From Kineococcus radiotolerans SRS30216 = ATCC BAA-149 (lineage in GTDB: Bacteria; Actinomycetota; Actinomycetes; Actinomycetales; Kineococcaceae): 32,000 bases of DNA. The translations under genes and the position numbers were made by a program. The notes under the pieces were generated by a model. It was not told the origin of the DNA. It was given only the letters and a program-made list of their open reading frames with translations, and did not search any database. Below, piece after piece: positions 1 through 31,420 of this stretch. The DNA lies in contig NC_009664.2 in the NCBI RefSeq assembly GCF_000017305.1, forward strand, positions 4,350,001 to 4,382,000. The letters are read 5' to 3'. The stretch's first letter is position 1; every line of letters starts with the position of its first letter.

Positions 1-579
1 GAGGTGCAGTTGCCTGCCGGCGCTGACGCCGCCCGGGCTGACCTGGCCGCGGCCCGGACCGGGATCCAGGAGGTGCTGCGCGAGATGCAGCAGATCCTGC
101 AGGTGCTGCGGGTGGAGGACGGGCAGACGCTGACTCCGACTCCCGACGCCAGTGGCGTCGAGCAGCTCGTGGACGTGGCGCGCTCGGCCGGCCTCGACCT
201 GGCCGCCGACCTCGGCGATCCCAGCGACCTGCACCGGCCTCTGCCTGCGCAGGTGGGATCGGCGACCTACCGCATCGTGCAGGAAGCCTTGACCAACGTG
301 CAGAAGCACGGGACCGGCAGTGCGCGGCTGCGGCTGGACATCGCCGAGGACGGTGTCCGCATCGAAGTCGTCAACCCGTCGGCCCGCACCGGCCCGCCAC
401 CGACCTGGGGGACCGGGGCCATCGGGGGGATGGGGCTGGACCGGTCCTCCGGTGGGCACGGGCTGATCGGCATGTGTGAGCGCGCCACCGCCGCCGGTGG
501 CCGACTCGAGGTGTCGCACGATGGCGACGTGTTCCGTGTTCGGGCGCACCTGCCGGTGCGGAGAGGAGATGTGGGGTGA
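1..579 (+). CDS. sensor histidine kinase, C-terminal part (5' end lies outside the window)
   Basis: The reading frame is open to the window edge. It carries HATPase_c-type motifs YRIVQEALTNVQKHG and GGHGLIGMCERA, typical of NarL/LiaS-class kinases. The stop overlaps the response-regulator start (GTGA at 576-579). Confidence 0.85.
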   Translation, partial: EVQLPAGADAARADLAAARTGIQEVLREMQQILQVLRVEDGQTLTPTPDASGVEQLVDVARSAGLDLAADLGDPSDLHRPLPAQVGSATYRIVQEALTNVQKHGTGSARLRLDIAEDGVRIEVVNPSARTGPPPTWGTGAIGGMGLDRSSGGHGLIGMCERATAAGGRLEVSHDGDVFRVRAHLPVRRGDVG

Positions 580-1235
580 TCAGCGTCATGATCGTCGACG
601 ATCAGGAGATGATCCGGGAGGGACTGCGCACGATCATCGGCGCCCACCCGGACCTGCAGGTGGCTGCTGTCGCCGGCGACGGGCTCGAAGCGCTGAAGCT
701 GCTGGAGTCGACAGCGGTCGACGTGGTCCTGATGGACATCCGCATGCCCGGCATCGACGGGGTGGAGGCTACCCGCCGCATCCGCGCCACCCGCAGCAGC
801 GCGCAAGTGCGGATCTGCGTCCTGACCACCTTCGACAACGACGAGAACGTCCTGCGTGCCCTGAAGGCCGGCGCCGACGGCTTCCTCAGCAAGGGCGCCG
901 GGCCGACCGAACTGACCGCCGGGATCCTCGACATCGCCGGCGGGGGAAGCGCTCTGTCTCCCACCGCCCTCAGCGCCGTCGTCACCCACGTCGCTGAGGA
1001 CAACTCCGTGCCCGACGACCCCCAGGCCCTGAAGCTCTTCGCCGCCCTCACCGCCCGCGAACGGGAGGTCGTGGAGGCCATCGTGACCGGACTGGACAAC
1101 CAGCAGATCGCCGAGGCGATGTTCGTCTCCCCGTTCACGGTGAAGACCCACGCCAACCGCGCCATGAGCAAGGTCGGCGCCCGCGACCGGGCCCAGCTCG
1201 TCTCGATGGCGGTGCGGGCCGGGATGCGTCCCTGA
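576..1235 (+). CDS. two-component response regulator, NarL/LuxR family
   Basis: There is a receiver domain (VMIVDDQEMIREGL...VVLMDIRMPGIDG) and a C-terminal LuxR HTH (LTAREREVVEAIVTGLDNQQIAEAMFVSPFTVKTHANRAMSKVG). It is translationally coupled to the upstream kinase. Confidence 0.92.
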   Translation: MISVMIVDDQEMIREGLRTIIGAHPDLQVAAVAGDGLEALKLLESTAVDVVLMDIRMPGIDGVEATRRIRATRSSAQVRICVLTTFDNDENVLRALKAGADGFLSKGAGPTELTAGILDIAGGGSALSPTALSAVVTHVAEDNSVPDDPQALKLFAALTAREREVVEAIVTGLDNQQIAEAMFVSPFTVKTHANRAMSKVGARDRAQLVSMAVRAGMRP

Positions 1236-1255
1236 GCCCGGACGCGATCGGCGGC

Positions 1256-2536
1256 TCAGCCCAGCTGCTCGCGGAGGTAGTTCATGCCGATGCTCAGGTG
1301 CGCCTGATTACCGATGGAATCGGCGGCGATCTGGGTGTAGATGTGCCAGCTCAGCGGGATCTCCGCGACCTCGACGTCGACTCCGGCGGCGCGGGCCCGC
1401 TCGGCGAAGTCGAGCACGCTGCGGGTCGGGACGAGGGTGTCGCGGGTGGGTTCGATGATCAGCGTGGGCGGGGCCTGGGGCGAGAGGTAGGTCGCGGTGC
1501 TGACGGCGTCGTAGCGCTCGGGGAACTCCTGCGCGGTGCCCCCGATGTACTGCTGGCTCAGTCCGGCGCCGTTGAGGGGGCCGAGAGAAACGGTGGAGGC
1601 AGCGGAGGCGCGGACGTCGGCGGCGGGGTAGTCGGTGACGACCGCGGCGGGGACGGGAACCGTGCCACCGCACGAGGACAGAGCCGTTCCCTGCGCGGCG
1701 GAGTAGGCGGCGTTCAGGGCCAGGTTGCCGCCGGCGGAATCCCCCCAGTAGGCGAGGCGGTTCATGTCGACGCCGAGTTCGGTGGCGTGCTCGGACAGCC
1801 ACGCCGCTGCGCAGCTCACCTGCGCCGGGGCCTTGTCCCAGGTGGGATTGCTCTCGGTGGAGAGCTCGTAGTTGACCGAGACGACGACGTAGCCGGCGTC
1901 AGCCAGTGCGCGGTGGTCGGCGGCGGTGGTGGTGCCGCTGCCCTGGCTCCAGCCTCCGCCGTGGACGTAGAGGACCGCGGGGGCGAGGTCGGATGCAGGA
2001 TCGTCACCGCGGGTGGCGGGGGTGAAGATGTCGAGGGTGAGTTCCTCGCCGTCCTGCGTGCGGTCGTAGGTGCGGACCTCGTCGGGCGCCGGGGCGCTGA
2101 TGGAGGAGAGGCCGAACGTGGCCTTGGCCAGGTTGACCGAGCCGCCGTGGTCGCTCACCGCGCCCACGATGACGGCGACGACGACGACGTTGGCGACCAG
2201 GCTGGCGGCGCCGAGGACTGCGGCGGTTCCGCCGCTGCGGCGAAGACCCCGCCGCCAGGCGATGACCCCGATGGCGGCGATGACCAGACCCGCCAGCGCG
2301 AACTGCGGGCTGAGGGTGGCGGCGAGGAGGTTGGCGATGGCGCTGAGCAGGCCGAGCCCGGGCACCAGGCTGCCGACCGTGAGCACCGCCACGACCGCGG
2401 CGACGATCAGGGCCAGGGTCAGCAAGATCGCCCAGCCGAGCTTCGCCCCCCGCCCGCGTCGCCGGGCGGGACGAACACCTGCCCCAGCGGCACCGACGGG
2501 TTCGGAGGTACCGGCGGGTTCGGTGGGGCTGGACAC
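1256..2536 (-). CDS. membrane-anchored alpha/beta hydrolase (esterase/lipase, Abhydrolase_3-like)
   Basis: 426 aa ORF. The N-terminus has about 4 hydrophobic helices. The catalytic domain has an HGGGW oxyanion motif and a GDSAGG nucleophile elbow. Confidence 0.85.
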   Translation of the reverse strand: MSSPTEPAGTSEPVGAAGAGVRPARRRGRGAKLGWAILLTLALIVAAVVAVLTVGSLVPGLGLLSAIANLLAATLSPQFALAGLVIAAIGVIAWRRGLRRSGGTAAVLGAASLVANVVVVAVIVGAVSDHGGSVNLAKATFGLSSISAPAPDEVRTYDRTQDGEELTLDIFTPATRGDDPASDLAPAVLYVHGGGWSQGSGTTTAADHRALADAGYVVVSVNYELSTESNPTWDKAPAQVSCAAAWLSEHATELGVDMNRLAYWGDSAGGNLALNAAYSAAQGTALSSCGGTVPVPAAVVTDYPAADVRASAASTVSLGPLNGAGLSQQYIGGTAQEFPERYDAVSTATYLSPQAPPTLIIEPTRDTLVPTRSVLDFAERARAAGVDVEVAEIPLSWHIYTQIAADSIGNQAHLSIGMNYLREQLG

Positions 2537-2692
2537 GGGAACTCTCCGATCAGGGTGAGCGAGGGGGACAGGCGATGTGGCGCGCAGTGGGTGACGGGCT
2601 GATCCCGTGCGAGCCGCACCGGATCCTGCACCTCGCGCCTGCTGCGCCGACGCGCTGCTCGAGGACTTCCCGCGGCGGGACCGAGGGGCGGG

Positions 2693-3145
2693 TCAGCGCA
2701 CCGGCAGAGCGCGGCGGAAGCCGGCGACGGCGATGACGGCGGTCGTGATGTGCATCAGGGCCAGGGCGATGACGCCGCCGGTGGTGGAGCCGGCCATGTT
2801 CGGGGCGGTGGTCAGGTCGGGAACGAAGGAGACCAGCAGCACCACCGGCACCAGGACGCGCAGCAGGCGGGCCGGGCGGGCGGCGGTGCGGCGGACGACA
2901 GCCCAGCCGGCCAGGGCCAGCAGGACGCCGATGACGGTGAGGAAGACGTAGGCGTCGGGGGTCAGCGGGGTGAAGGTGGCATCGGCGCCGGCGGCGAGGG
3001 CGATCTGGGCGATGACGGCGTTGACCGCGGACGCGGCGACGACGGTGGCGGCGATGATGCCGGTGCGGGCCAGCCCGGAGCGCCGGGCAGCGGGGGCACC
3101 GCCAGCGGCGGCGGCGTTGGACGTGGCGGGCGTGTTGATGGTCAC
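2693..3145 (-). CDS. small integral membrane protein (about 4 TM helices; resembles DUF6069-type proteins from memory)
   Basis: 150 aa ORF with four hydrophobic segments. It sits directly downstream of the AT-rich operator pair at 3173-3220. Confidence 0.7.
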   Translation of the reverse strand: MTINTPATSNAAAAGGAPAARRSGLARTGIIAATVVAASAVNAVIAQIALAAGADATFTPLTPDAYVFLTVIGVLLALAGWAVVRRTAARPARLLRVLVPVVLLVSFVPDLTTAPNMAGSTTGGVIALALMHITTAVIAVAGFRRALPVR

Positions 3146-3172
3146 GGGGAACCTCCAGGGCGGGGGACGATT

Positions 3173-3220
3173 ACTTGAAGCTTCATCGGACTCTAAGCGG
3201 TAGGACTTGAACCGTCAAGT
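3173..3220. promoter_or_regulatory. paired palindromic operator-like sites (ACTTGAAGCTTCAt and ACTTGAACCGTCAAGT), homologous to 6683-6731
   Basis: AT-rich island in GC-rich DNA. There are two inverted repeats with half-site ACTTGA/TCAAGT, starting 32 bp apart. They lie 28 bp upstream of the minus-strand start at 3145. The same arrangement is found upstream of doxX. Confidence 0.6.
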
Positions 3221-3389
3221 AAAAGTTCTTGCGGTGAGGACGTGGTGGTTGGGCGTGCGGCTTCGCTCCCGGCGACCGGCCGATCATCGCCCGGGCGCAC
3301 CCCAGGGCCGCTGGCAGCCGGATGCCCTCCGGCCTGCGGCCGGAGGGCATCGCCTTCTTCCGCGTGGACCGCGAGGTCCGTGCGGCAGC

Positions 3390-4262
<873 letters not shown>

Positions 4263-4381
4263 GGATCTCTCCTGGTGCGAGCTGGTTCGGGGCCGCGCAG
4301 CGTTCACGACGTTTCCGGGGGGTCCGAACGGTGGTGATCTAGCGGTGGGTCTGGACACCGGGGTGGACCAGGAGCGGGCGG

Positions 4382-4422
4382 GCCACCTCGTGAGCGGGAA
4401 TGTTCACCGCTCACGAGGTGGC
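4382..4422 (-). terminator. perfect 16-bp stem / 9-nt loop hairpin downstream of the reductase gene
   Basis: GCCACCTCGTGAGCGG-gaatgttca-CCGCTCACGAGGTGGC lies 37 bp after the minus-strand stop at 4459. No U-tract follows, which is common in high-GC actinobacteria. Confidence 0.55.
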
Positions 4423-4458
4423 GCAGCCGGTGGGGGTGCTGCTGGGGTGGTGCTGGGG

Positions 4459-5031
4459 TCAGGAGACGACGGCGAAGCCGCCGGTCCAGCCGATCTGCTC
4501 GCTGGCGGCCAGGCCGATCTGCAGGTAGGCCAGAGCCTCCAGCTCACGGGCGCGAGCCAGCGGGCCGGCGTCGACGGTCTTGAGCCCGGCGGCGGCGACG
4601 ACCGCGACCAGGGCGGCCTTGGCCTCGGCGTCGTCCCCAGCCAGGACGACGGTGGTGGTCTGCCCGCCGACGGTGCCGGCGGCCAGGGTAGGCCCGAAGT
4701 TGGTGTTGAACGCCTTGACGACCTTGGAGTCCGGCAGGGCTTCGGCGATCTGCGCGGCCGCGGAGGAGTCGGCGGGCACGGTCAGGGAGAAGGTGGCGAA
4801 GTCCAGGGGGTTGGTGATGTCGACGACGACCTTGCCCGCCAGCTGGTCCTTGCGGGCGGAGATGATCTCGGCGACCGCGGCGTGGGGGACGGCCAGGACG
4901 ACGATGTCGCCGGTGACGGCCTTGTCGGTGTCGGCGTGGGCGATGACCTCGGCGGTGTTGCCGCCCTTGGTGACCAGGCCGGCGATGGCCTGGCCCATGT
5001 TGCCGGTGCCGATGACGGTGACAGTGGACAT
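4459..5031 (-). CDS. NADPH-dependent F420 reductase-like / NAD(P)-binding oxidoreductase
   Basis: MSTVTVIGTGNMGQAIAG is a dinucleotide-binding motif, and overall the protein resembles the NpdG/F420_oxidored family. The ATG at 5031 has GAGGAG upstream. Confidence 0.8.
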   Translation of the reverse strand: MSTVTVIGTGNMGQAIAGLVTKGGNTAEVIAHADTDKAVTGDIVVLAVPHAAVAEIISARKDQLAGKVVVDITNPLDFATFSLTVPADSSAAAQIAEALPDSKVVKAFNTNFGPTLAAGTVGGQTTTVVLAGDDAEAKAALVAVVAAAGLKTVDAGPLARARELEALAYLQIGLAASEQIGWTGGFAVVS

Positions 5032-5245
5032 GGAGGTCTCCTCGTGGTTGGGGTGGTGCGGGTGTTCGGTGAACCGTCGTCGATGACGGCGACGGAGTCT
5101 TGGGGTCAGGACCACGACTCGGACTCGACGTGGTGGGCGGTCCTGGCGGATCGAGCGGTTCTGCTGGTTGCGACCCAGCTGTGCCTCTGGCCTCGTAGCC
5201 GGTCCAGGCGCCGCGAGTCAGGCGTCGCGGTTCAGGCGACCTGGT

Positions 5246-6124
5246 TCAGGCGACCTGGAAGGAGCGCTTGGCCATGCCCATCGCGTAGTCGCTGATGATC
5301 ATCTTCGGCGCGGCGGTGGCGTCGGTGGCTGCGCCCATGGTGATGAACAGCGGGGTGAAGTGCTCCACCGTGGGGTGGGCGTAGGGCATGCCCGGGGCGC
5401 GGCGGTAGTCGGCGAGGGTGTCGATGTCGCCGCGCAGCAGGGCCTCGGTGCTCCAGGCGTCGAACTCGCTCGACCAGCCCGGGATGGTCCCGTACATGAT
5501 CATGTCGCGGGTGATGTAGGGCAGGCCGTGGGTCATGTACCCGGAGCCGATGACCAGGACGCCCTGCTCGCGCAGCGGGCGCAGGCGCCGGCCGAGATCG
5601 AGCAGCTTCTGCGGGTCGTGGGTGGGCATGCTCAGCTGCAGCACCGGCACGTCGGCGTAGGGGTACATCACCTTCAGCGGCACCCACGCCCCGTGGTCCA
5701 GACCGCGGGTGGCGGAGGTGTGCAGGGACTCGGTGTCGGGCATGAGGGCCGCGACCTGGGCGGCCAGGGTGGTGGCGTCGGGGGTGGCGTAGGTCATCTC
5801 GAAGTAGCGCTGGGCGAAGCCGCCGAAGTCGTAGACCAGCGGGGTCGCTGCGACCGGGGAGGAGAGCATCGCGCTCTGGGACTCCCAGTGCGCGGAGACG
5901 ATGAGGACCGCGCGGGGGGTGGGCAGGTTCTGCGCCCAGCCGAAGAGCTGGTTGATCCAGTGCGGGTCGTCGAACAGCGGCGGGGCGCCGTGGCTGAGGT
6001 AGAGCGCCGGCATCGGCCCGTCGGCGGGGGTCCAGGCGTGGCGGGTCTTGGCGGCCGGGGCGACGGTGCGCAGGAAGTCGTCGAAGGCGCCGGCGGGGTT
6101 GGGGTTGTCGAAGGGGTTGGGCAC
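5246..6124 (-). CDS. class III extradiol ring-cleavage dioxygenase (LigB / 4,5-DOPA-dioxygenase-like)
   Basis: MPALYLSHGAPP...SAHWE...GSGYMTHGL are motifs of LigB-family dioxygenases. The GTG at 6124 is preceded by AAGGAG. Confidence 0.85.
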   Translation of the reverse strand: MPNPFDNPNPAGAFDDFLRTVAPAAKTRHAWTPADGPMPALYLSHGAPPLFDDPHWINQLFGWAQNLPTPRAVLIVSAHWESQSAMLSSPVAATPLVYDFGGFAQRYFEMTYATPDATTLAAQVAALMPDTESLHTSATRGLDHGAWVPLKVMYPYADVPVLQLSMPTHDPQKLLDLGRRLRPLREQGVLVIGSGYMTHGLPYITRDMIMYGTIPGWSSEFDAWSTEALLRGDIDTLADYRRAPGMPYAHPTVEHFTPLFITMGAATDATAAPKMIISDYAMGMAKRSFQVA

Positions 6125-6266
6125 GGTCGGCTCCTTCAGAGTCAGCGCAGGGCGGGGAGGTGCAGAGCAGGGAGGTGCAAGGCGGTGGATCGGTGGGGCG
6201 GTGAGGCGTCGGGGGGTGGATCGGCAGAAGCCGGTCCGAGCGAGAGCCGGTCCGAGCAGGAGCGGG

Positions 6267-6641
6267 TCAGAAGCTGTAGGGGCCGAAGCGCAGGATCGCC
6301 AGGACCAGGGCCAGCACGCCCAGGACGAGGGGGCCGCCCAGGGCCTTGGACTCCCCGCGGCGGGCGTGGACGACGACCGCGCCGAGCATCACGATCGCCA
6401 GACCGGCCGCAGCGAGGGGGGTCAGGATGGTCGCGGTGCCGAGGGCGGCGGGCAGGATCAGCCCGAGCGCGCCCAGCACCTCCAGGGCGCCGATGGCCTT
6501 GACCTTGCCGTCGCTGGAGTCCTCGACCCAGGCCATGCCGGAGGCGGCGAGCTTGGTGCGCGGCTGGGCCAGCTTCATCAGGCCGGCGCCGAGGAAGGCC
6601 AGGGCGAGCAGGCCGGCGACGATCCACAGGACGACGTTCAT
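6267..6641 (-). CDS. DoxX family membrane protein
   Basis: 124 aa with four TM helices. LAFLGAGLMKL and GALEVLGALGLILP are typical of DoxX. Confidence 0.85.
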   Translation of the reverse strand: MNVVLWIVAGLLALAFLGAGLMKLAQPRTKLAASGMAWVEDSSDGKVKAIGALEVLGALGLILPAALGTATILTPLAAAGLAIVMLGAVVVHARRGESKALGGPLVLGVLALVLAILRFGPYSF

Positions 6642-6682
6642 GAGGTGCTCCAGGCGGTGAGGTGCGGGGCGGGTGCCCTACG

Positions 6683-6761
6683 ACTTGAATCTTCAATCGA
6701 CTGTAGACCCCTCCAACTTGAGACGTCAAGTAAAACTGGCCCGGCATCGCATGAAATTTCA
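6683..6761. promoter_or_regulatory. divergent doxX/marR control region with three palindromic operator-like sites
   Basis: The sites are ACTTGAATCTTCAAt (6683-6697), ACTTGAGACGTCAAGT (6716-6731) and TGAAATTTCA (6752-6761). The first two are colinear with 3173-3220. The region lies between the doxX start (6641) and the marR start (6776). Confidence 0.65.
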
Positions 6762-6775
6762 CGTAAGCTGGGGGC

Positions 6776-7258
6776 ATGGACACCCCCGACCAGCCGCGCT
6801 GGCTCACCGACGAGGAGCAGCCGGCCTGGATCGCACTGGCGGGGGCGTTGATGAAGGTGCCCGCCGTCTTGGATGCCCAGCTGCAACGGGACGCGGGCCT
6901 GAGCTACTTCGAGTACGCGGTGCTGTCGTGGCTGTCGATGCAGCCGGAGCGCACCACGCGCATGAGCGACCTGGCCGAGCTGGTCAACAGCTCCCTCTCC
7001 CGCCTCTCGCACCTGGCGCGCCGACTGGAGAAGCAGGGCTGGCTGACGCGCCGGCCCGACCCCACCGACGGGCGCTACACCCTGGCCACCCTCACCGAAG
7101 ATGGCTGGGAGAAGGTCGCTGCGGCGGCCCCCGGGCACGTGGAGGCGGTGCGCCGGGTCGTCTTCGACCCCTTGACCAAGACGCAGGTCAAGCAGCTGCG
7201 CGAAGTCGGTGACCGCCTCCAGCGCGCCGCAGACGATGAGGCCCACCGCCCCGACTGA
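6776..7258 (+). CDS. MarR family transcriptional regulator
   Basis: Winged-helix region MSDLAELVNSSLSRLSHLARRLEKQGWLTRRPDPTDGRYTLATLTEDG. Transcribed divergently from doxX. Confidence 0.9.
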   Translation: MDTPDQPRWLTDEEQPAWIALAGALMKVPAVLDAQLQRDAGLSYFEYAVLSWLSMQPERTTRMSDLAELVNSSLSRLSHLARRLEKQGWLTRRPDPTDGRYTLATLTEDGWEKVAAAAPGHVEAVRRVVFDPLTKTQVKQLREVGDRLQRAADDEAHRPD

Positions 7259-7301
7259 AGCTCCCGGCCACGAGCTGGCAGCTCGTCAGCGCGCGATCGA
7301 T

Positions 7302-7880
7302 CTAGCGCACATCGCCTTCCCCGTTCGCCGGGGGGGGGGCTCGAATGCGAAGCCCCGTGAGCTTCTGATGGGCGCGCTGCAGCTCCTCTCTGGTCTGGTC
7401 GAGCTCGCGGAGGTAGTCGCGGGCGACCTCGCGGGCGGCGGTCAGGTCCTCGTTGCTGGTGGTGATCGTGGTCTCCAGGGAGCGGGTGGTGTCGCGTCCG
7501 TTCATCAGCTGGACCCGGAGCTCAGCGACCTCGCCCTGCGAAGCAGGAAGGCGTGCCTTGAGGGCGTTGTAGGAGGCCGCCGCAGTGGGGTCGGCGTGGT
7601 CGATCGGCGGCCGTTGATGGCTGTTCTCGCGCAGATGCCGGGCCTCCTGGAGGAGGTCTGGCCTGCGGCGCAGGGTGTGTGGGTGGACACCGGCCGCCCG
7701 GGCAACCGACTGGACGTTGATGGGTCGGCCACCACGCTGCAGAGCGGTGATCGCCGCCGTGATCTTGCCGCGGTTGGCGGCGGCCTGCTCCTTCTTGGCC
7801 GCGATCGCCCGGCTCGGGTTCTGGCCGCCTGCCGTCGCCCTTCGTGTTGGGTTGACGCCAGTGGGCGTGTCCGGGCTCAC
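7302..7880 (-). CDS. DUF6262-like HTH / coiled-coil protein associated with tyrosine-recombinase elements
   Basis: ITAAITALQRGGRPINVQSVARAAGVHPHTLRRRPDLLQEARHLRE is followed by a coiled-coil. The start overlaps the integrase stop (GTGA). The gene contains a G10 tract at 7330-7339. Confidence 0.65.
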   Translation of the reverse strand: MSPDTPTGVNPTRRATAGGQNPSRAIAAKKEQAAANRGKITAAITALQRGGRPINVQSVARAAGVHPHTLRRRPDLLQEARHLRENSHQRPPIDHADPTAAASYNALKARLPASQGEVAELRVQLMNGRDTTRSLETTITTSNEDLTAAREVARDYLRELDQTREELQRAHQKLTGLRIRAPPPANGEGDVR

Positions 7881-8722
7881 GAGAGCACCGCCGGACCGGA
7901 GGTGGTCGCGCCGCCTCCGAGGTTGAGGCCACCGGTGCGGACTCGTGTGCGGAAGTCACGCTCGACCGGGGTCAAGGCGTCCAGATGAGCGCTCAGGAGC
8001 GTGAGCATGCGCCGCCACCCGTCCCGGCGGGCGCTCAGAACCGCGACGTGGTGGGGCTCGAGGTCGCTGTCACCTTCGATCAGTAGGCGTTGCAGGGTAA
8101 TCGAGCAGGTGTGGATCTCGGTCTTGATGTCGGCGATGTTGCTGGGGTCAGCGGCGAAGTGATCGCAACTGAAGCACATGCGGTCGTACTCGCAGCCCTC
8201 CCGGCCCAGGGCGAGGACCTGCGGGTCGGGAGCAGTTGTTCGTCCCGATGTCCCGGGCCGGCGCACTGGCCAGCAGCCCCCTGGTCGCTGGTCGCCCGTG
8301 AGTGTTCAGCCGGTGCGCGGCGAGCAGCTCGACGGCTTCGCGAAGCTTCTCGTCCTGGACCCGCACGTAGGAGTCGATCGTGGCCTGCACGTTGGTGTGG
8401 TCGCGAGTTCCTGGACCAGGGAGATGTCGGTGCCGAGGTTGACGAGGTGCTGGAGGCAGGTGTGGCGGAAGAGTCTGACCTGCAGGAGGTCGGGGTTGAT
8501 TCGAGTGCTTCCGAGGTTGAAGCCCGGGATCCCCCGCTCGGATGGTTCGCCGCGATCGGCAACCATCCCGGCCCCAGTGGATCGAACCGCTCGGGCGACA
8601 CCGGAACGAACTCGGTCAGGCGTTTTCCCCTGGTGGGTTCCGTGCCTGGTGAGACGAACGTGTCGGGGAAGAGGCAGGATCCTGGATCGGTGGGGGGTGG
8701 GTGCTGGTGCAGGCCGGTTCAC
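7877..8722 (-). pseudogene. tyrosine recombinase/integrase, frameshifted and N-terminally truncated
   Basis: Consecutive integrase motifs are spread over three minus frames. They are RGKRLTEFVPVSPE, then RLFRHTCLQHLVNLGTDISLVQEL, then HTNVQATIDSYVRV (catalytic Tyr context), then the C-terminal GCEYDRMCFSCDHF module. At least 2 frameshifts are needed. No core-binding domain and no first catalytic Arg region are present. Confidence 0.8.
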
Positions 8723-10194: not shown

Positions 10195-10223
10195 AAACGG
10201 AACTGATCAATCCGTATCCGTTT
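10195..10223. promoter_or_regulatory. AT-rich nested palindrome, candidate TetR operator
   Basis: AAACGGAactgatcaatccgtaTCCGTTT has inner arms ACGGA/TCCGT and a central TGATCA. It lies 18 bp upstream of the tetR start. Confidence 0.5.
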
Positions 10224-10227
10224 CAGG

Positions 10228-10450
10228 GGCACCGTGAGGTCTGCGCGGTTCATCGGCACGGTTCGTGTTCGCCCGCTCATCGACGACGTGCGGGTGATCC
10301 TCATGCGTGGATTGCGCTCGCTCGCCGACAGGACCGTGAGGTCGCCAGCCGTCGACGTCCGCCCGGATCGCGGGATGACCGTGACGTCGCACACCGCGGG
10401 ATGACCGGGTCCTGACGCGTTGCCGCTGAGGCTGGATGACGGTTCTGCTC
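10228..10450 (+). repeat. junction repeat cluster A (five full or partial direct copies)
   Basis: The copies are ACCGTGAGGTC (10231-10241), caGGACCGTGAGGTCGCC (10329-10346), GCCCGGATCGCGGGATGACCGTGACGTCGC (10361-10390), CGCGGGATGACCGGGTCCTGACGCG (10395-10419) and GCTGGATGACGGTTCTGCTC (10431-10450). Confidence 0.9.
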
Positions 10451-11220: not shown

Positions 11221-11497
11221 CTCCTGCCGGGCGCTGCGTCCAGGAAGTGCGCGTGCGCTCTGCCCATCTCGGCAGCGAGGCCCACCAGCTGTAGCCCAGG
11301 GTTGCTTGTGCTGGTGCGGGTCGAAGCGGCGGCCGACGATGGGCAGGCGGCGGCCGGCGTTCTCCAGGTCGTGCCGCCGCGGCCAGGATCCTCAGGAGCA
11401 CTGTCACGAAGAACGCACCTGCACCGATCGGTATGTCCTCTCCTCCTGGGGTCCTCATGGCAGTCGTGTTGCGTGCTGCTGCTGTAGGCGGTGCGCA

Positions 11498-11521
11498 CTG
11501 CGGGATGACCGTGAGGTCGGC
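11498..11521 (+). repeat. junction repeat, copy B
   Basis: CTGCGGGATGACCGTGAGGTCGGC; exact 12-mer core at 11500-11511. Confidence 0.9.
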
Positions 11522-12932: not shown

Positions 12933-13008
12933 CCCCTCCTGCCACGTGTCCCGCACCCCGCCGTCCTGGCCCGCTCGGCCGGAGCGCGGCCGCGCAATCA
13001 CCGTCATG

Positions 13009-13070
13009 GCCGCGAGATCGCCCGCGCGCGCGATCGCGCCCGGATCGCGGGATGAGCGTGCGTGTCGAGG
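13009..13070 (+). repeat. junction repeat, copy C (bipartite)
   Basis: L box GCCGCGAGATCGCCC (13009-13023), then GCCCGGATCGCGGGATGAGCGTGCGTGTCGAGG (13037-13070). Box spacing is 45 bp. Confidence 0.8.
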
Positions 13071-13697: not shown

Positions 13698-13790
13698 CGG
13701 TTGCCCGAGTCGTGTCGCGTCGTAGCCGGGGACACACCTGTGTGCCGCCCGCCGGTTGACGTGTCGTGCAGTCGTTGGCCGCGCACGATC

Positions 13791-13816
13791 TGCGGGATGA
13801 CCGCGCGGTGGGCTCG
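13791..13816 (+). repeat. junction repeat, copy D (ATGACCGCGCGGTGG subfamily)
   Basis: TGCGGGATGACCGCGCGGTGGGCTCG; exact core at 13792-13803. Confidence 0.9.
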
Positions 13817-14256: not shown

Positions 14257-14580
14257 TCACCCGATGGGCTCAACGGTCTTACTCCTGCGTCGAGTGCGCG
14301 GTTCTCGACAGATGAGTGCAGCCGCCAGCGCGTTGCCGTGCCCGTGCCCCATGCCGTACTCGCTCTCGAGCCGAGCGACTCGTTGCACGTGGCGGGAGTC
14401 AGGGTGCTCAGCGCGGTGCTCACGCAGCAGTTGCTGCCAGTGTTCGATGGGATGTCCGTACTCGGCTTCGACGGCGGGGAAGCAGGACGTGGGGCCCTTG
14501 GTGGTTCCAGGCACGGAGTTCTCCCACCGCTGCTCGCGGGTGCCGTCAACCACGGGATCGCCGGCGGCCTGCACTTCCAC
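14257..14580 (-). CDS. DUF4287 domain protein
   Basis: KGPTSCFPAVEAEYGHPIEHWQQLL...ESEYGMGHGHGNALAAAL matches the DUF4287 pattern. The start is a GTG at 14580 or 14574. Confidence 0.7.
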   Translation of the reverse strand: MEVQAAGDPVVDGTREQRWENSVPGTTKGPTSCFPAVEAEYGHPIEHWQQLLREHRAEHPDSRHVQRVARLESEYGMGHGHGNALAAALICREPRTRRRSKTVEPIG

Positions 14581-14589
14581 GCTGGTTGG

Positions 14590-14641
14590 CAGGACCGCAG
14601 GTCGATGACGTCCTTCGCGGCGGCGTGACCGTGAGGTCGCC
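14590..14641 (+). repeat. junction repeat, copy E (two direct boxes)
   Basis: caGGACCGCAGGTCGATGACGTCC followed by GGCGTGACCGTGAGGTCGCC. It lies 10 bp upstream of the DUF4287 start. Confidence 0.75.
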
Positions 14642-14995
14642 TCCGAGCATTGAGCAGGCGGTGCCCACGTCAGGGGACGGCCGAGCTGAGGTTGGTCTCC
14701 TGGCGACGGTGGACAGGAGGGCCTCGGACGTGTGCGGCCCGGCGCGCCCCCGCCGCCGGTACGCGCCCCCGTGCACGCCTTGGATCCGGCGGGTCCAGCG
14801 GATCCTTGACGTGGGCGGGCCCGCACTGGATACCCTGCCCCGGAGCCCCCGATGGGCGAGACGAAGGAGAATCACCTCCCGGCTGGACGATGGTCTGGCC
14901 GGTTCCCCGCCGCCCGGGGGCTCCTCGTCCGGTGCATCTGGCACTGGCCCGTCGCTCCCGTGCACCTCATCCCCGCCCCACGCACAGGAGCACCC

Positions 14996-15417: not shown

Positions 15418-15484
15418 CCACGACCGCGAGGTCCTGGGCCCGTCCTGCTCGCGCGCTCATCGCGGGATGACCGGCAGGTCCGCC
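15418..15484 (+). repeat. junction repeat, copy F (bipartite)
   Basis: cacGACCGCGAGGTCCTGG, then CGCGGGATGACCGGCAGGTCCGCC. Exact core at 15462-15473. Box spacing is 47 bp. Confidence 0.9.
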
Positions 15485-16703: not shown

Positions 16704-16842
16704 GCGGTCAGCATGGTCAGTGAAGAGCGGGGCCGACGCCCTCGCTCCTGATCTTCACTGGGTCTGCCGGTGGAGGACACAGGCAGCTCGACGGGGCGAG
16801 CAGTTGCGCAGCACCAGCATGCTCAGTCTGAGACCGCGCCCA

Positions 16843-16866
16843 ACGCGGGATGACCGTGCGTTCCGC
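16843..16866 (+). repeat. junction repeat, copy G
   Basis: ACGCGGGATGACCGTGCGTTCCGC; exact core at 16845-16856. Confidence 0.9.
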
Positions 16867-17846: not shown

Positions 17847-17882
17847 GGTCAGCACGCTATGTGGGCCGCGCCCTTGCGCTCA

Positions 17883-17907
17883 AGGCGGGATGACGGTGAA
17901 GTCGGAC
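17883..17907 (+). repeat. junction repeat, copy H (variant)
   Basis: AGGCGGGATGACGGTGAAGTCGGAC. Confidence 0.8.
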
Positions 17908-19543: not shown

Positions 19544-19610
19544 GAGGTGATCGTGGCAGTCGCGCTGGGGCGCGGCGCCCTCGCCGCCTGGACATCGACG
19601 CCTGAATCAT

Positions 19611-19677
19611 CGCCAGGACCGTGACGTCGCCCGCCTCAGTCGATACAGCCCGGCCCGCTGGATGACTGTGCGGGGTC
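19611..19677 (+). repeat. junction repeat, copy I (bipartite)
   Basis: cgcCAGGACCGTGACGTCGCCCGCC, then GCCCGGCCCGCTGGATGACTGTGCGGGGTC. Box spacing is 47 bp. Confidence 0.85.
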
Positions 19678-20535: not shown

Positions 20536-20592
20536 TCGAGATGACCGTGACGTCGCCGCCGTCCAGCGCCCGCCCGGACCGCGGGATGTTCC
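20536..20592 (+). repeat. junction repeat, copy J (bipartite)
   Basis: TCGAGATGACCGTGACGTCGCC, then GCCCGGACCGCGGGATGTTCC. Box spacing is 45 bp. Confidence 0.85.
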
Positions 20593-20603
20593 AACGGTTC
20601 CGC

Positions 20604-22391
20604 TCACGGCCAGGGCACCTCGGCGAAGGCGGGGTTAACGGCCAAGGCGCGCAGCTGTTCGGTGCTGGTGAGGGGGGAGTCGAAGGAGTTCCCGGTTGCC
20701 AGCTGGGCTTTCGTGGTGGCGTCCAGCCTGGTGTCGGCGCTGACGACGCGTCCGTCGGGGTGGATGACGCTGACGGTGGTGTGCCAGCCCTGCAGCTGAC
20801 CGCCGGGGACTTGATCTTCTCGCACGAGACGGGTGTCGAAGGTGCGGGTGGTGACCAGCCGAGCACCGCCAGGTAGTTGCTCGTCGGTGCATTGCGCCTG
20901 GGGTTGGCAGGTGGTGCGTTCTGAGCCGGGGGTCTCGTCGGCCAGGTGCCCGATCTGCACGGTGAGGGTGGCCTGGGGGGTGCTGCGGGGGTCTTGGTGA
21001 GTCATCCACCAGCCGATTCGTTGCCCGGTGTCGCCGTTGGTCATCGTGCCCACCGCGTAGTAGCGGACCAGGTCCGGGTCGATGCTGAGCAGGGCGTCAC
21101 GGAAGGCGGCGGTGGCGAGGAGCTGCGGGTCGGCGGTGCGGGTGGTGGCGGACGTGGTGAGGGAGGTGGCGGGCGAGCTGGCTGGTGCCGGGTCGACAGG
21201 GTTGAGCTCAGCGGCGACGGCGTGCGCGTGCTGAAGCATCTGACGGTAGGCAGCCAGCTCACCGGCGTGTTCCTCGGCCAGCGGCGCCCAGTGCCGGACC
21301 AGGGCCTGCGCGAAGGCCGATCCCAGGGCGCTGGTGTCCTTGCAGTCACGGTCGGCGCTCGCCAGCGCCGCCTCGGCGGTGGTGAAGGTGTCCAGATCCG
21401 CCTCGGTGGCGCGGGTGCCGTCGGGTTGGTCGGTCAGCAGGTCACGACGCAAGGTCTGCACCTGCACGGGCAGGTCGGCTGGGGTGGCGACCTGGTGGCC
21501 GCGGGTGCCCATGCACTGCGACCACTCCTCCAGCGGGACCCGCAGGGCGCTGTCGCCGGCGACGTCCTCGAGCAGCTGTTCGGGCAGGCCCCGCACCGCG
21601 ACGTAGGTGCGGGTGTAGGTCTCCGCGTCGATGCCGTACAGCTGCTCGACCCCTTGGCCCGCGCAGCCGCTGGTGGTCACGGTCAGGCTGCCGTTGTCCT
21701 CCACGGGCAGGGTCAGCTCCCGCGCCGGGGTTCCGGTCAGGGTTTGGTAGTAGCCGTCGGGTACGCCGTCGATGAAGTCGCCGAGCTGGCCGGAGCCGGG
21801 GTCGGTGAGGACGGCACGGATGGAGCTGGCCACGCCGTAGGTGCTGGCGTGGGTGCTCCACGCCGACAGGTCATCGAGGTCGCGCCCACGGCGGGCCGCT
21901 TCCCCGACACGGTCGCCGGTGTCGACGGCGACGGGGCTGCGCTGGATGGTGACCCCTTGATCGGTCAGGCATCGGTCGATGAGGAGTTGCTCGCTCACGC
22001 CCAGGTCGAGTCCGTCGCGGGTGGCGATGGGCAGCTGGGCGAGGACGTCGTCGACGGTGGCGGCGGCGCGTTGGCCGTCGCGGACCTGGTCTGCGGCGGG
22101 GACGGTGCGCACCTGCTCGCTGTTCCACGGCTGCTGCCAGCTCAGTCCCGCCGCGGCGAGGGCGATGAGGGCGAGGGGGGTGGTGACGGCGGCGCGGCGC
22201 TGCCGGCGTCGGCGCCGGCCCCCGCGCAGAGCCGCAGCAGCGATGCCGGCGGGGGCGTGCAGGCCGCGGCCGGCCGCGTCCAGGCCTGAGCGCAGACGCC
22301 GTGCGGTCGGGTCGTCAGCACCGATGGCCTCGCCGGGGTCCTCGCCCAGGTCGCGGGGGTCGTGGGGGTCGTGGGGGTCGTGGTGGTTCAT
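20604..22391 (-). CDS. single-pass membrane protein with large extracytoplasmic domain; putative anti-sigma factor partner
   Basis: 595 aa. The start overlaps the sigma stop (ATGA). The N-terminus contains (HDP)3. A Arg-rich stretch precedes the TM segment TTPLALIALAAAGLSW. The C-terminal domain is large and uncharacterised. Confidence 0.7.
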   Translation of the reverse strand: MNHHDPHDPHDPRDLGEDPGEAIGADDPTARRLRSGLDAAGRGLHAPAGIAAAALRGGRRRRRQRRAAVTTPLALIALAAAGLSWQQPWNSEQVRTVPAADQVRDGQRAAATVDDVLAQLPIATRDGLDLGVSEQLLIDRCLTDQGVTIQRSPVAVDTGDRVGEAARRGRDLDDLSAWSTHASTYGVASSIRAVLTDPGSGQLGDFIDGVPDGYYQTLTGTPARELTLPVEDNGSLTVTTSGCAGQGVEQLYGIDAETYTRTYVAVRGLPEQLLEDVAGDSALRVPLEEWSQCMGTRGHQVATPADLPVQVQTLRRDLLTDQPDGTRATEADLDTFTTAEAALASADRDCKDTSALGSAFAQALVRHWAPLAEEHAGELAAYRQMLQHAHAVAAELNPVDPAPASSPATSLTTSATTRTADPQLLATAAFRDALLSIDPDLVRYYAVGTMTNGDTGQRIGWWMTHQDPRSTPQATLTVQIGHLADETPGSERTTCQPQAQCTDEQLPGGARLVTTRTFDTRLVREDQVPGGQLQGWHTTVSVIHPDGRVVSADTRLDATTKAQLATGNSFDSPLTSTEQLRALAVNPAFAEVPWP

Positions 22392-23200
22392 CGGGTGCGC
22401 TCCTCGTGCGAGGGAACCGGGTGCGTGCCGGGAACGGCAAGGTCAGGTGGCGTCGCGGCAGATGGCGTCACGTCAGGGGCCGCCGCGGCTGCTGTCACTG
22501 ATGGTGGTGCTGTCGCGGCGGACGAACGGGTCCGCGCTCCCTGGGCGGCTCCGGCACGGGGCGGGTCAACGCGGGGCGGCTCGGAGCCGGGTGGGTCGGC
22601 GCGGGAGGTGTCCAGCAGTTGTCGCAGTCGGCTCAAGCCGCGGGAAGCCTGGGTCTTGACCGTGCCGGTGGAGCAGTTCAGCGCATCGGCGATCTGGGCT
22701 TCGGTCCAGTCCTCGTAGTAGCGCAGCACCAGCACCGCGCGTTGGCGCGGGGAGAGCTGTCGCAGCGCGGTGACGGCCTCGTCCTGCTCGGCGTAGCGTT
22801 CCGCGGTGTCGTGGCTGATGTCGTGGCTGGTGCGGCGGTTGGAGCCGGGGGCTGCGATGTCGTGGCCGCTGCCTTGCTCAGGCCAGAGACCGTCGAGGGT
22901 CACTTCGCGGGGGCGGCGCCCCCGCCGGCGCCAGCGGTCGGTGACGGCTCGGACCATGACGGTGCGGGCGTAGGCGGCGGGTTCCTGCACCCGGCGCCAG
23001 TGCAGGTAGGTGCGCTCCAGGGTGTCCTGCAGGAGATCCTCGGCCAGGTGGTGATCGCCGGTGAGGAAGACGGCGGTGCGCATCAGCTGGTCGGCGTGGG
23101 CGAGGGCCCAGTCCTCGAAGTCGCGATCCCCTCGCGGGGTGGGCTGTGCCCGTGAGGTGGGGTCAGGGCCCTGCTGGGAGTCCTGCCCGAGCTTCTGCAC
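22388..23200 (-). CDS. ECF (sigma-70 family, SigE-like) RNA polymerase sigma factor with Ala/Pro-rich C-terminal extension
   Basis: Region 2 is LAEDLLQDTLERTYLHWRRV. Region 4 is LSPRQRAVLVLRYYEDWTEAQIADALNCSTGTVKTQASRGLSRLRQLL. About 70 further residues have lower GC3. Confidence 0.88.
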   Translation of the reverse strand: MQKLGQDSQQGPDPTSRAQPTPRGDRDFEDWALAHADQLMRTAVFLTGDHHLAEDLLQDTLERTYLHWRRVQEPAAYARTVMVRAVTDRWRRRGRRPREVTLDGLWPEQGSGHDIAAPGSNRRTSHDISHDTAERYAEQDEAVTALRQLSPRQRAVLVLRYYEDWTEAQIADALNCSTGTVKTQASRGLSRLRQLLDTSRADPPGSEPPRVDPPRAGAAQGARTRSSAATAPPSVTAAAAAPDVTPSAATPPDLAVPGTHPVPSHEERTR

Positions 23201-23269: not shown

Positions 23270-23370
23270 AGGCAGGCCACAGCTTCTGGTCGAGCCCGCC
23301 CCGCCCGCGGGGCTGCGTTGTGCAGATCGTCGCGCCCCACGACAGCACGCCTCTCGCCAGCCGCGTACGA

Positions 23371-23403
23371 CCGCCCGGACCGCGGGATGACCGTGGAGTC
23401 GGC
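23371..23403 (+). repeat. junction repeat, copy K
   Basis: CCGCCCGGACCGCGGGATGACCGTGGAGTCGGC; exact core at 23382-23393. Confidence 0.9.
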
Positions 23404-24188: not shown

Positions 24189-24290
24189 GTTGTCCCCTCG
24201 CCGGTGATCGCGTCGCTGCGGGGACGCATCAGCAGTCTCGCTGCTGTCACAGCCCGGTGTCTCATCGGAGCGGCGGCGATCGCGTCCTGT

Positions 24291-24314
24291 CTGCGGGATG
24301 ACCGTGCGTCTGTC
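24291..24314 (+). repeat. junction repeat, copy L
   Basis: CTGCGGGATGACCGTGCGTCTGTC; exact core at 24293-24304. Confidence 0.9.
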
Positions 24315-24833: not shown

Positions 24834-24874
24834 GGCCAGTGTCCACCCGTCCCGATGAAGGGCTGATCGCGCGG

Positions 24875-24900
24875 ACGGCGGGATGACCGGGAGGTTGCCC
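24875..24900 (+). repeat. junction repeat, copy M
   Basis: ACGGCGGGATGACCGGGAGGTTGCCC; exact core at 24878-24889. It lies between convergent gene ends. Confidence 0.9.
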
Positions 24901-24945
24901 GACCCTCGGGCCGGTCGGGGGCGGGCGGCCCACGCCGGTTGCGCG

Positions 24946-25944: not shown

Positions 25945-25982
25945 CGTTCCTCCTGACGTAGTGGCCACTCGGTGACCGCTTC

Positions 25983-26009
25983 GGTGTCCATGGTGGCGCC
26001 ATGGACACC
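25983..26009. promoter_or_regulatory. perfect 11-bp inverted repeat (GGTGTCCATGG-tggcg-CCATGGACACC) in the WYL/monooxygenase divergent region
   Basis: The right arm contains the ATG (26001) of the monooxygenase. The repeat lies 39 bp upstream of the WYL regulator start. Confidence 0.5.
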
Positions 26010-27560: not shown

Positions 27561-27645
27561 TGCCGAGGTGGCGGTTGGCGGCGTGGGCGGCGAGTCCGGT
27601 GAGGGTGAGGCGGAAGGTCAACGCGCGGGCGTGGGCGGTCGTCAC
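27280..27645 (-). pseudogene. fragment of an M20 (ArgE/DapE-like) peptidase/deacylase
   Basis: LTFRLTLTGLAAHAANRHLGIS followed directly by AGDWASTVPDRLVAGGRFGVRLGEAVEVARAAFESCVAAACATHPWLAEHPAQVEW. These are middle-domain motifs with an internal deletion. Both termini are missing. Confidence 0.55.
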
Positions 27646-29725: not shown

Positions 29726-29770
29726 CTCCGGCCAGGTGCGAATCATGAACGTCCACGGAACGTCCACGCT

Positions 29771-29795
29771 CGCGGGATGACCGCGCGGTGGTTGG
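29771..29795 (+). repeat. junction repeat, copy N (ATGACCGCGCGGTGG subfamily)
   Basis: CGCGGGATGACCGCGCGGTGGTTGG; exact core at 29772-29783. It lies between convergent gene ends and is preceded by an 11-bp tandem duplication at 29747-29768. Confidence 0.9.
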
Positions 29796-30247: not shown

Positions 30248-30334
30248 TCTCGATGACCGCGCGTCCTTCGACACGACCGCCGGATCGCAGCCGGCCATGG
30301 CCCAGCCCGGACGTGGGATGGCCGTGACGTCGGG
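30248..30334 (+). repeat. junction repeat, copies O (three boxes)
   Basis: The boxes are TCTCGATGACCGCGCGTCCTTCG (30248-30270), caCGACCGCCGGATCGCAGCC (30272-30292) and GCCCGGACGTGGGATGGCCGTGACGTCGGG (30305-30334). The last two are 45 bp apart. Confidence 0.75.
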
Positions 30335-31373: not shown

Positions 31374-31396
31374 CGGGTTTCCTCGAAACGCGGGCA

Positions 31397-31420
31397 ACGC
31401 GGGATGACCGCGCGCTTCGT
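31397..31420 (+). repeat. junction repeat, copy Q
   Basis: AACGCGGGATGACCGCGCGCTTCG; exact core at 31399-31410. It is preceded by a duplicated ACGCGGG. Confidence 0.9.

Follow-up and report, generated by a model that had tools for sequence, protein, structure and literature searches.

The repeated boxes in this region of Kineococcus radiotolerans DNA are probably bipartite recombination sites that form the junctions of a mobile gene-cassette system, one that follows an integron-like logic and yet is not an integron. From comparisons among related loci, we infer that the cassettes are mobile. In what follows, the window means the whole stretch of 32,000 nucleotides that was analysed, whose G+C content is 70-72%.

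The repetition described by the earlier note is real. When GACCGTGASGTCGCC is searched with no more than two mismatches, nine matches are found in the window compared with 0.94 expected, and none of 100 shuffled sequences reaches that number. A 14-mer had been taken as the conserved unit, but the invariant part is instead GCGGGATGACCG. This core sits within an asymmetric conserved unit of about 30 bp, cgCnCnnAnC-GCGGGATGACCG-TGAnGTCG, of which the window carries about 17 copies. Positions 0 to +11 are invariant across 68 copies, and conservation in the profile extends from -10 to +19. Each site can be read as a variable left arm (cgCnCnnAnC), the invariant 12-bp core and a right arm, which comes in two types, TGAnGTCG or GTGCGnTCC. 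The GCGGGAT element, previously placed after the box, is in fact directly 5' of the R box (GCGGGAT-GACCGTGAsGTCG). The following R sites were located with the profile:

11490..11519, + strand: R site with its core G at 11500, between two minus-strand genes
13782..13811, + strand: R site with its core G at 13792
16835..16864, + strand: R site with its core G at 16845 and a class-B right arm, GTGCGTTCC
17875..17904, + strand: R site with its core G at 17885, between two minus-strand genes
24283..24312, + strand: R site with its core G at 24293
24868..24897, + strand: R site with its core G at 24878
29762..29791, + strand: R site with its core G at 29772, between convergent genes
31389..31418, + strand: R site with its core G at 31399

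Contigs assembled from short reads of this strain stop shortly past the R site at 31389..31418.

Every copy in the window is carried by the + strand, over a span from 10.2 to 31.4 kb. A profile built from the window copies and run with nhmmer returns 18 hits on the + strand and none on the - strand, all within 10.36-31.42 kb, and the profile search gives no copy in the first 8.7 kb of the window, which is occupied by core genes. There is one copy per gene or small gene group, independent of gene orientation, and divergent, convergent and co-directional intergenic gaps are occupied alike.

The boxes are direct rather than inverted, as had been claimed, since the best inverted match to the core upstream of the site scores 8.68 versus 8.64 for a control placement. 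The claim that they do not resemble the hairpins of attC or REP elements also holds. When both strands of four long-form junctions were folded, the z-scores ranged from -1.35 to +1.38 relative to shuffled sequences, which is within about 1.4 standard deviations, and RNAalifold reveals nothing beyond a 4-bp hairpin in the core. An attC-like inverted repeat is ruled out by the inverted-match control and these two folding results. Likewise, a dyad-symmetric core for a tyrosine or serine recombinase was rejected because the dyad symmetry of the 34-bp site is not significant (p ~0.3). The lack of dyad symmetry is unusual for the core sites of these enzymes.

Other searches for a familiar identity were negative. 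The site has no match in Rfam at gathering or permissive thresholds, the window contains no tRNA or tmRNA genes, and a promoter and terminator scan of the 10228-10450 region found none. Phage and plasmid collections yielded only chance matches or single genes related to the window. The literature on the sequence, and on Kineococcus repeats, integrons or cassettes, provided no description of the site.

An exact-pattern scan of one genome per species identified at least 120 loci. Among the matches listed, 22 loci are from Kineococcus and carry up to 11 copies per 8 kb when scored with the profile; the other 98 have a single lower-scoring match each, as chance predicts. Within a locus, copies keep to one strand with no exception above 14 bits, and a few weaker hits fall on the opposite strand. 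Segments shared by the window and the Kineococcus loci are 77-83% identical, and the array segments are lower in G+C than their flanks. A metagenome scan uncovered further arrays, at 66-69% G+C. One array resides on a small plasmid-like contig of 13.3 kb (L169) that encodes ParA, a resolvase, MobC, a relaxase and a replicase.

The strongest reason to regard these boxes as cassette boundaries comes from where homology between loci begins and ends. An all-against-all BLAST comparison of the loci gave 26 distinct matches with 97 internal endpoints. Among these endpoints, 33 are located within -15 to +22 of a core, whereas placing the endpoints at random yields 2.5 and, in 2000 trials, never more than 8. 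BLAST matches between loci also reveal that inter-site segments recur whole beside different neighbours. For example, L004:4007-4469 corresponds to L087:528-69 with 87% identity in two species, L072:2170-2532 corresponds to L093:6060-6422 with 88% identity on two contigs of one genome, and L011:1-421 corresponds to L084:449-869 with 96% identity and also matches L072.

Alignments anchored on the core place the crossover more precisely. When a pair of loci shares the downstream cassette, the two sequences are identical from core position 0 on and are unrelated upstream. When a pair shares the upstream cassette, identity continues through +11 and the sequences diverge after this point. The crossover is therefore bracketed between 0 and +12, inside GCGGGATGACCG. 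These alignments show that the left arm moves with the upstream cassette and the right arm with the downstream cassette. Recombination through short homology could likewise produce exchange at a conserved motif of 20-30 bp. One non-consensus left arm, cacgctgat, travels with its own cassette and differs from the arm at the other side of that cassette, which argues against target-site duplication. On the same grounds, we rejected a CRISPR- or casposon-like model in which the repeats arise by such duplication. Neighbouring copies are spaced 739 bp apart at the median (range 214-4894 bp), and there is a separate 'empty' class of 26-35 bp. We saw no excision circle, empty site or within-strain polymorphism, and all short-read contigs of the window strain have one and the same gene order.

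The earlier note had likened the boxes to multi-site protein-binding arrays, such as transposon-end or recombinase sites, or iterons. The first part of this guess points in the right direction, since the comparative data identify the sites as the points where cassettes appear to be exchanged. The iteron part finds no support in the window, where there is neither a replication gene nor an origin.

Some junctions are bipartite. A second, partial copy (the L box) is present 45-47 bp upstream of the R site at 5 to 7 junctions of the window (P<0.0005). In the window, 5 of 16 R sites have an L box at an offset of 45-49 in which 11 or more of 15 bases match; random anchors average 0.2 and never exceed 4 in 2000 trials, and other offsets give 0 to 2. 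In the Kineococcus loci, an L box occurs 44-48 bp upstream in 21 of 85 copies. With a threshold of at least 12 of 15 bases, an upstream and direct L box accompanies 19 of 79 copies, versus 3 to 5 in three control placements, and in related loci the enrichment is seen only upstream and only in direct orientation. The proposal that L boxes exceed chance at a conserved offset is borne out both in the window and in the related loci. The bipartite junctions of the window beyond the array head are as follows:

13008..13066, + strand: bipartite junction with L box 13008-13022 and R core 13047, upstream of a His_Phos gene
15422..15481, + strand: bipartite junction with L box 15422-15436 and R core 15462
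19608..19676, + strand: bipartite junction with L-type site CATCGCCAG-GACCGTGACGTCGCC (box 19617-19631) and R core 19657 (GCTGGATGACTG)
20543..20600, + strand: bipartite junction with L box 20543-20557 and R core 20581, whose right arm is lost (GCGGGATGttcc)
23341..23401, + strand: degenerate L box (23341) and an intact R site with its core G at 23382
30275..30332, + strand: bipartite junction with L box 30275-30289 and R core 30313 (GTGGGATGGCCG)

The box pairs reported previously are largely where they were said to be. Those at 10332/10377 (45 bp), 15422/15469 (47 bp), 19617/19664 (47 bp) and 30275/30320 (45 bp) are confirmed, and the pair at 23341/23389 is degenerate, as described. The pair assigned to 13009 exists, but its box starts at 13008 and its spacing is 46 bp. 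The pair assigned to 20541/20586 has the 45-bp spacing claimed for it, but its coordinates are 20543/20588.

The L-type site differs from the R site in its left half, having the consensus CATCGnCAn-GACCGyGAnGTCGCC, and solitary L-type sites are found at some cassette boundaries (L066 at 2833, L027 at 670 and L113 at 390). As a second type of site, the L box is part of the upstream cassette, at its 3' end. In the long form, the spacer holds a short palindrome, GTCGC-N8-9-GCGAC. In the corresponding spacer helix (43-47/57-61), both partners have changed in four of the five pairs, and 8 of 500 shuffles do as well. The L box is absent from two thirds of junctions, which shows that junctions can exist without it. 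Because the L-R distance is 45 bp at some junctions and 47 bp at others, any reading frame that spans the two boxes would be broken. A conserved peptide or leader was rejected for a further reason: ATGA and a TGA-CCG-TGA run are present in the core, but the ORFs downstream either lie out of frame or end after 6-7 codons.

The stretch from 10224 to 10444 comes directly after the start of a TetR gene and a palindrome (10195-10223) that is probably the operator of this gene. In the array of the window, positions 10228-10450 are located at the upstream end or close to it. Five full or partial boxes had been counted at 10.2-10.45 kb, and five core-type copies are indeed present, at 10224-10244 (degenerate), 10290-10300 (variant), 10370, 10396 and 10431 (degenerate). 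To these can be added L-type units at about 10250, 10278 and 10323-10346. The stack is composed of the following parts:

10224..10244, + strand: outermost degenerate site, cagggg-CACCGTGAGGTCTGC, in which the box matches 12 of 15 bases and caGGGG takes the place of GCGGGAT
10250..10300, + strand: two degenerate L-type units (tCATCGgCAcGgttCGTGttcGCC and tCATCGaCgaC), then a variant core, GCGGGTGATCC, at 10290-10300
10323..10346, + strand: L-type site made of cgCCGaCAg and the L box GACCGTGAGGTCGCC at 10332-10346
10347..10369, + strand: L-R spacer with the short palindrome GTCG...CGAC and the left arm of the R site (cgCCCggAtC)
10370..10389, + strand: R site 1, with the invariant core GCGGGATGACCG and right arm TGACGTCG (profile, 26.6 bits)
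10396..10415, + strand: R site 2, with a degenerate right arm, 26 bp past the start of R site 1 (profile)
10431..10444, + strand: degenerate core GCTGGATGACGGTT (profile)

R sites 1 and 2 enclose an empty mini-cassette of 26 bp, and doublets of 26-35 bp also occur in L066, L067, L091, L111 and L222. Stacks of this kind are located at the same array end elsewhere. L179 and L125 start with a doublet 34 bp apart, and the array head of the metagenome contig L222 carries at least 10 tandem L-type units of 26 bp followed by 4.5 tandem R-type units of 29 bp. The 10250..10300 part of the stack shares the motif GCGGGTGATCCTCrTGC with L093. At the head of the window's array, sites both intact and degenerate are thus piled up together with empty cassettes 26-80 bp long.

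The cargo of the arrays consists of accessory genes, including those for GNAT, APH(6)-type kinase, TetR, MerR, SDR, MFS, ECF sigma and glyoxalase proteins, together with many small hypothetical proteins. TetR genes are frequent. An ORF that appears PIN-like, judged from its sequence only, is also present, as is a Phd-Doc-like pair in which Pfam recognizes a Fic/DOC domain and in which the antitoxin is RHH/FitA-like according to its homologues. Homologues of the Phd-like antitoxin reside mostly in array-free contexts, and one of the search results is the metagenome array L222.

Relative to the site, 36 cargo genes are co-oriented and 27 are anti-oriented, and some cassettes hold more than one gene. 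The GC skew of the coding strand in arrays is +0.066 for co-oriented genes and -0.115 for anti-oriented genes. Independent of coding, the array top strand has a GC skew of +0.090 and an AT skew of -0.080 (p=4e-11). Genes located more than 300 bp outside the arrays exhibit an effect of the same sign and about half the size (+0.043 and -0.065; p=1e-5). The excess of G and T on the top strand indicates that the top strand of the site is leading-strand sequence. The arrays are co-oriented with the replication strand skew, and the asymmetry is stronger inside arrays.

We looked for the responsible enzyme near the arrays. Pfam searches covering the genes of about a dozen array borders and of a sample of cassettes detected no recombinase or transposase, and a crude six-frame motif scan of all loci detected no recombinase within arrays. 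The borders adjoin mutually unrelated genes coding for TetR, MFS, MCP, histidine kinase, MerR, GGDEF-EAL and nuclease proteins. Nearby candidate enzymes are encoded only on the two plasmid-like metagenome contigs, L169 and L222. A small serine resolvase is located about 2 kb from the array of L169, and MobA/VirD2-type relaxases that are 31% identical to each other are located 1.3 to 3.5 kb from the arrays of L222 and L169. The resolvase and the relaxases may serve plasmid housekeeping only. By default, we prefer a conventional site-specific recombinase over an enzyme that nicks and joins single strands.

In the mechanism that we favour, a cassette would comprise a right arm, one or more genes, an optional L module and a left arm, a layout suggested by the movement of the left arm with the upstream cassette and of the right arm with the downstream cassette. 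An excised circle would then hold one composite site, in which the L box is followed by a palindrome-bearing spacer of about 30 bp, the left arm, the core and the R box. The L box can be regarded as a probable second copy of the right-arm box (AnGACCGyGAnGTCGCC), in which CATCGnCA replaces GCGGG and which is positioned 45-47 bp upstream. Most likely, the same protein uses it for accessory or arm-type binding or as an alternative place to recombine. Cassettes would be excised and re-inserted, always in one orientation, by a recombinase whose gene is located elsewhere in the genome. One-way insertion of this type would build single-orientation arrays with a G- and T-rich (leading-strand) top strand.

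A more ambitious proposal, which we put forward tentatively and hold to be somewhat less than an even bet, is that Kineococcus and related uncultured actinobacteria possess a new, integron-independent gene-capture system. Its cassettes of accessory genes would be delimited by the asymmetric 30-bp site, with the accessory box 45-47 bp upstream as an option. Its arrays would be many and polar with respect to replication and would also be carried on small plasmids, and a new or unexpected enzyme, possibly one acting on single-stranded DNA, would drive it. There is a substantial chance that the machinery moving the cassettes is new.

Several other explanations must be weighed against recombination by a conventional enzyme. 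The closest of these is a single-strand variant, in which an HUH-type nuclease (relaxase-, Rep- or Y1-like) would nick the top strand in the core. A single-stranded circle formed between direct sites would be re-joined at a site exposed on the lagging-strand template, and the palindrome upstream of the core in the long forms would be used as a hairpin handle. The sites are asymmetric and all are direct repeats, the arrays are polar relative to the replication skew, and the top-strand excess of G and T is doubled in arrays, as expected from time spent single-stranded. Moreover, mini-cassettes of 26-29 nt are too small for double-stranded circles, the core can fold as CGCGG-GATGA-CCGyG, a hairpin whose G-T pairs are possible on the top strand only, the spacer palindrome exhibits some compensatory changes, and two plasmid-like contigs carry MobA/VirD2-type relaxases 1.3 to 3.5 kb from their arrays. 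However, the hairpins are just 4-5 bp, the invariant core hairpin gives no covariation evidence, the fold energies are no better than those of shuffled sequences, and the palindrome is missing from two thirds of junctions. Our enthusiasm is further dampened by the sampled chromosomal loci, where no HUH gene was seen, and by the relaxase-proximal part of L169, where an origin of transfer would be expected and no copy of the element was detected. Given the asymmetric site, the polar arrays, the single-strand-like mutational signature of the top strand and the 26-29 nt units, we consider a single-strand enzyme possible but unlikely. Less probable again is a passive conserved motif with a regulatory or structural role, for which shuffling would be a by-product of recombination through short homology. 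In T4-type phages, repeated promoter stem-loop motifs shuffle genes in a parallel manner. Exchange is bracketed within the conserved 12-30 bp, which is where homologous exchange would also fall, and no dedicated recombinase was found at array borders, in sampled cassettes or in the motif scan of the loci. However, the motif keeps one orientation regardless of the genes and is also found between convergent genes, and so it cannot be a promoter or operator that serves them. There is also no promoter- or terminator-like pattern and no Rfam match. The 12 invariant bases shared across many species and flanked by variable arms are what would be expected of a crossover core, and homologous exchange leaves unexplained the empty units of 26-29 bp, the stacks at array heads and the fixed L-R distance of 45-47 bp. 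We therefore judge a passive motif to be improbable.

Explanations that assign the boxes no part in moving genes fare worse. The copies are short, intergenic, numerous and, among the matches listed, confined to one genus, as might be expected of a small selfish intergenic repeat of the REP/BIME or MITE type. We find this very improbable because the copies lack terminal inverted repeats, a palindrome, target duplication and alternating orientation, and because they are restricted to low-GC accessory arrays and absent from the adjacent core genes (window 1-8700). In addition, homology between genomes breaks at the core rather than around it, and the element does not behave like an insertion into collinear DNA. 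At least as improbable are binding arrays for a regulator, partition protein or replication initiator, similar to iterons or centromere-like sites and with no recombination role; this is the explanation to which we give the least weight. Direct repeats with fixed spacing, the tandem units at one metagenome array head (at least 10 of 26 bp and 4.5 of 29 bp) and the frequency of TetR genes in arrays would be in keeping with such a function. However, the window has no replication or partition gene, its copies, roughly one to a gene, extend across more than 21 kb instead of being clustered at one locus, and the cassette boundaries inside the core are left unexplained.

Much rapid gene gain takes place through integron-type cassette arrays. 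If the cassette-junction interpretation is correct, modular gene capture has evolved more than once, here with a different site architecture and with no linked integrase. It would also point to a new recombination enzyme and would provide a compact 30-bp site with possible value as a tool. Such a system could help explain the turnover of accessory genes in these actinobacteria. The site, a bracket for the crossover and many natural cassettes are now defined.

Site-bounded cassette arrays are a known kind of structure, of which the present one is a variant lacking description in the searchable literature. A number of known repeat types can be set aside. REP/BIME elements, which are palindromic units of 20-40 nt that often cluster in alternating orientation, do not fit, as the site has no dyad and copies of a locus are on one strand above 14 bits. 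Nor do MITEs, which have terminal inverted repeats and a target-site duplication, as there are no inverted termini and the two arms that flank a cassette are unlike and move with it. A CRISPR array, with its short regular spacers, palindromic repeat and cas genes, is inconsistent with spacing of 26 to 4894 bp, with genes in the intervals and with the lack of cas domains among the sequences seen. Iterons or centromere-like repeats would be tandem sites beside a replication or partition gene, but the copies of the window are scattered across 21 kb without any rep or par gene, and tandem units of 26 and 29 bp were found at a single metagenome array head only. Integration in tandem at the end of a tRNA or other gene, where the repeat would be a piece of the flanking target, was rejected because there are no tRNAs and the borders adjoin unrelated genes. 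A dif-like Xer module, whose 28-bp site has XerC and XerD arms on either side of a 6-8 bp spacer, was rejected because the site has no dyad.

Other mobile systems offer partial parallels. IS200/IS605 elements transpose by single-strand 'peel and paste', with direct end boxes, no target duplication, a specific adjacent sequence and a replication-biased orientation. Like these elements and their gene-less derivatives, the cassettes have direct boxes near both ends, no target duplication, a specific adjacent sequence and an orientation bias. Subterminal hairpins at both ends and a Y1 HUH transposase characterize IS200/IS605 elements, but the boxes described here form stems of at most 3-4 bp without covariation, no Y1 transposase was seen in the sampled loci, and the cargo consists of ordinary accessory genes in long head-to-tail arrays. 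The tycheposons of Prochlorococcus reportedly hold island cargo between direct attachment-site repeats (partial tRNA genes beside an intact tRNA) and encode tyrosine recombinases. Direct site repeats separate the segments in both cases, and many segments have no recombinase of their own, but the arrays described here have no tRNA in the window, no common flanking gene and no recombinase at the sampled borders. The pdif sites of Acinetobacter plasmids are 28-bp XerC/XerD sites with dyad arms and alternating orientation. By analogy with pdif/Xer modules, the arrays may be seen as accessory modules between short conserved sites, occurring in varied contexts and served by an enzyme encoded elsewhere. 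In contrast to pdif, the site is asymmetric, GC-rich and always direct, and its sequence seems unrelated to the AT-rich dif consensus.

The most instructive comparison is with integrons. The site has neither the imperfect palindrome of attC (R''-L''...L'-R'), which folds into a hairpin, nor RYYYAAC/GTTRRRY boxes. An integron has IntI and attI at one end of its array, but no IntI was detected in the sampled cassettes or at the dozen or so array borders searched. Also unlike integrons, gene orientations are nearly equal and cassettes with several genes occur, and unlike sedentary chromosomal integrons there are many arrays per genome. A large survey reported that complete integrons are absent from Actinobacteria (PMC4889954). 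Large chromosomal integron arrays are oriented relative to replication (PMC8946536, PMC4889954), and the orientation of the present arrays is likewise tied to the direction of replication. In the integron site attI1, extra direct-repeat binding sites, DR1 and DR2, are located upstream of the crossover (PMC8946536), and the L box, being upstream of the crossover, may be a counterpart by analogy. As in sedentary integrons and CALIN, short cassettes (median of about 0.74 kb) are parted by a recombination site in one orientation, the site sequence is homogeneous within the lineage, shuffling distributes cassettes between genomes, the cargo includes toxin-antitoxin and acetyltransferase genes, and many arrays have no adjacent integrase. 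As in integrons, too, the homology endpoints, the recurring cassettes and the 0 to +12 bracket reveal the exchange of units with a crossover inside the repeated site.

Some cores of the junction repeat are preceded, at a distance of 75-85 bp, by a second conserved motif, ATATGyGGGTGATC(C). Copies were found in the window and at three of the other loci compared, as follows.

Window 10287-10300: motif copy
Locus L093, about 4532: motif copy
Locus L027, about 4290: motif copy
Locus L112: motif copy, inverted

An alternative cassette-end module of 85 bp (gtgtctcaGGACaTCGGTGACgGTCG...) is common to three junctions at two compared loci. In this module an L-like box precedes the core by about 62 bp rather than 45-47 bp.

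Locus L050, 3520-3604: 85-bp cassette-end module
Locus L050, 5835-5920: 85-bp cassette-end module
Locus L011, 3331-3405: 85-bp cassette-end module

At or near the head of the window array, the stretch that separates the first degenerate site from the start of the TetR gene (10177, minus strand) contains the palindrome AAACGGA-N15-TCCGTTT (10195-10223). The palindrome is unrelated to the junction repeat family and is probably the operator of the TetR gene. Outside the array, the gap after the MarR gene includes a run of 10-11 G nucleotides (7331-7341), which is a possible slippage tract.

The largest cassette of the window (24878-29772) carries four genes, coding for the following products.

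Window 24878-29772, minus strand: WYL-domain regulator
Window 24878-29772: FAD monooxygenase
Window 24878-29772: serine beta-lactamase-family protein
Window 24878-29772: DUF1648 protein

A homologue of the DUF1648 protein (83% identity) is encoded at another compared locus, L079, where no site adjoins it. Another cassette (20604-23200) combines an ECF sigma factor gene with an overlapping ORF of 595 amino acids that follows it. This ORF is without a Pfam match, and its product could be the anti-sigma partner of the sigma factor. ECF sigma genes recur in further arrays, such as that of L134. The alpha/beta hydrolase at 30569-31373 is split between one ORF at 30569-31012 and a second, overlapping one at 30972-31373, and is probably a frameshifted pseudogene within its cassette.

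Among the Kineococcus loci, the near-identical assemblies L216 and L217 differ by an 834-bp segment that carries a glyoxalase gene (L216 6749-7582 against L217 7550-7582). No site of the junction family is present in the flanks of this segment, and therefore indels in the genus also arise by another mechanism. In L093, two neighbouring cassettes of one array (4663-5001 and 5625-6029) code for small proteins of no known function that appear by eye to be related.

Numerous public read sets (SRR58872xx, SRR94368xx) contain the sequence of the window. Logan contigs of the window strain are L121-L123 and L213-L215, of which L121 terminates shortly past the site at 31399.

The array on the plasmid-like metagenome contig L222 has tandem 26-bp L-type units on both flanks (14429-14880 and 7169-7232). 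The block at the contig end comprises 10.1 or more copies, and the shorter block on the opposite side, which a relaxase gene abuts, comprises 2.5. The head of the array carries 4.5 tandem 29-bp R-type units. A second plasmid-like metagenome contig, L169 (13.3 kb), codes for ParA, a small serine resolvase, MobC/NikA, a relaxase, and a replicase, and carries three array sites. This combination of genes and sites suggests that mobilizable plasmids can serve as vehicles for cassettes.
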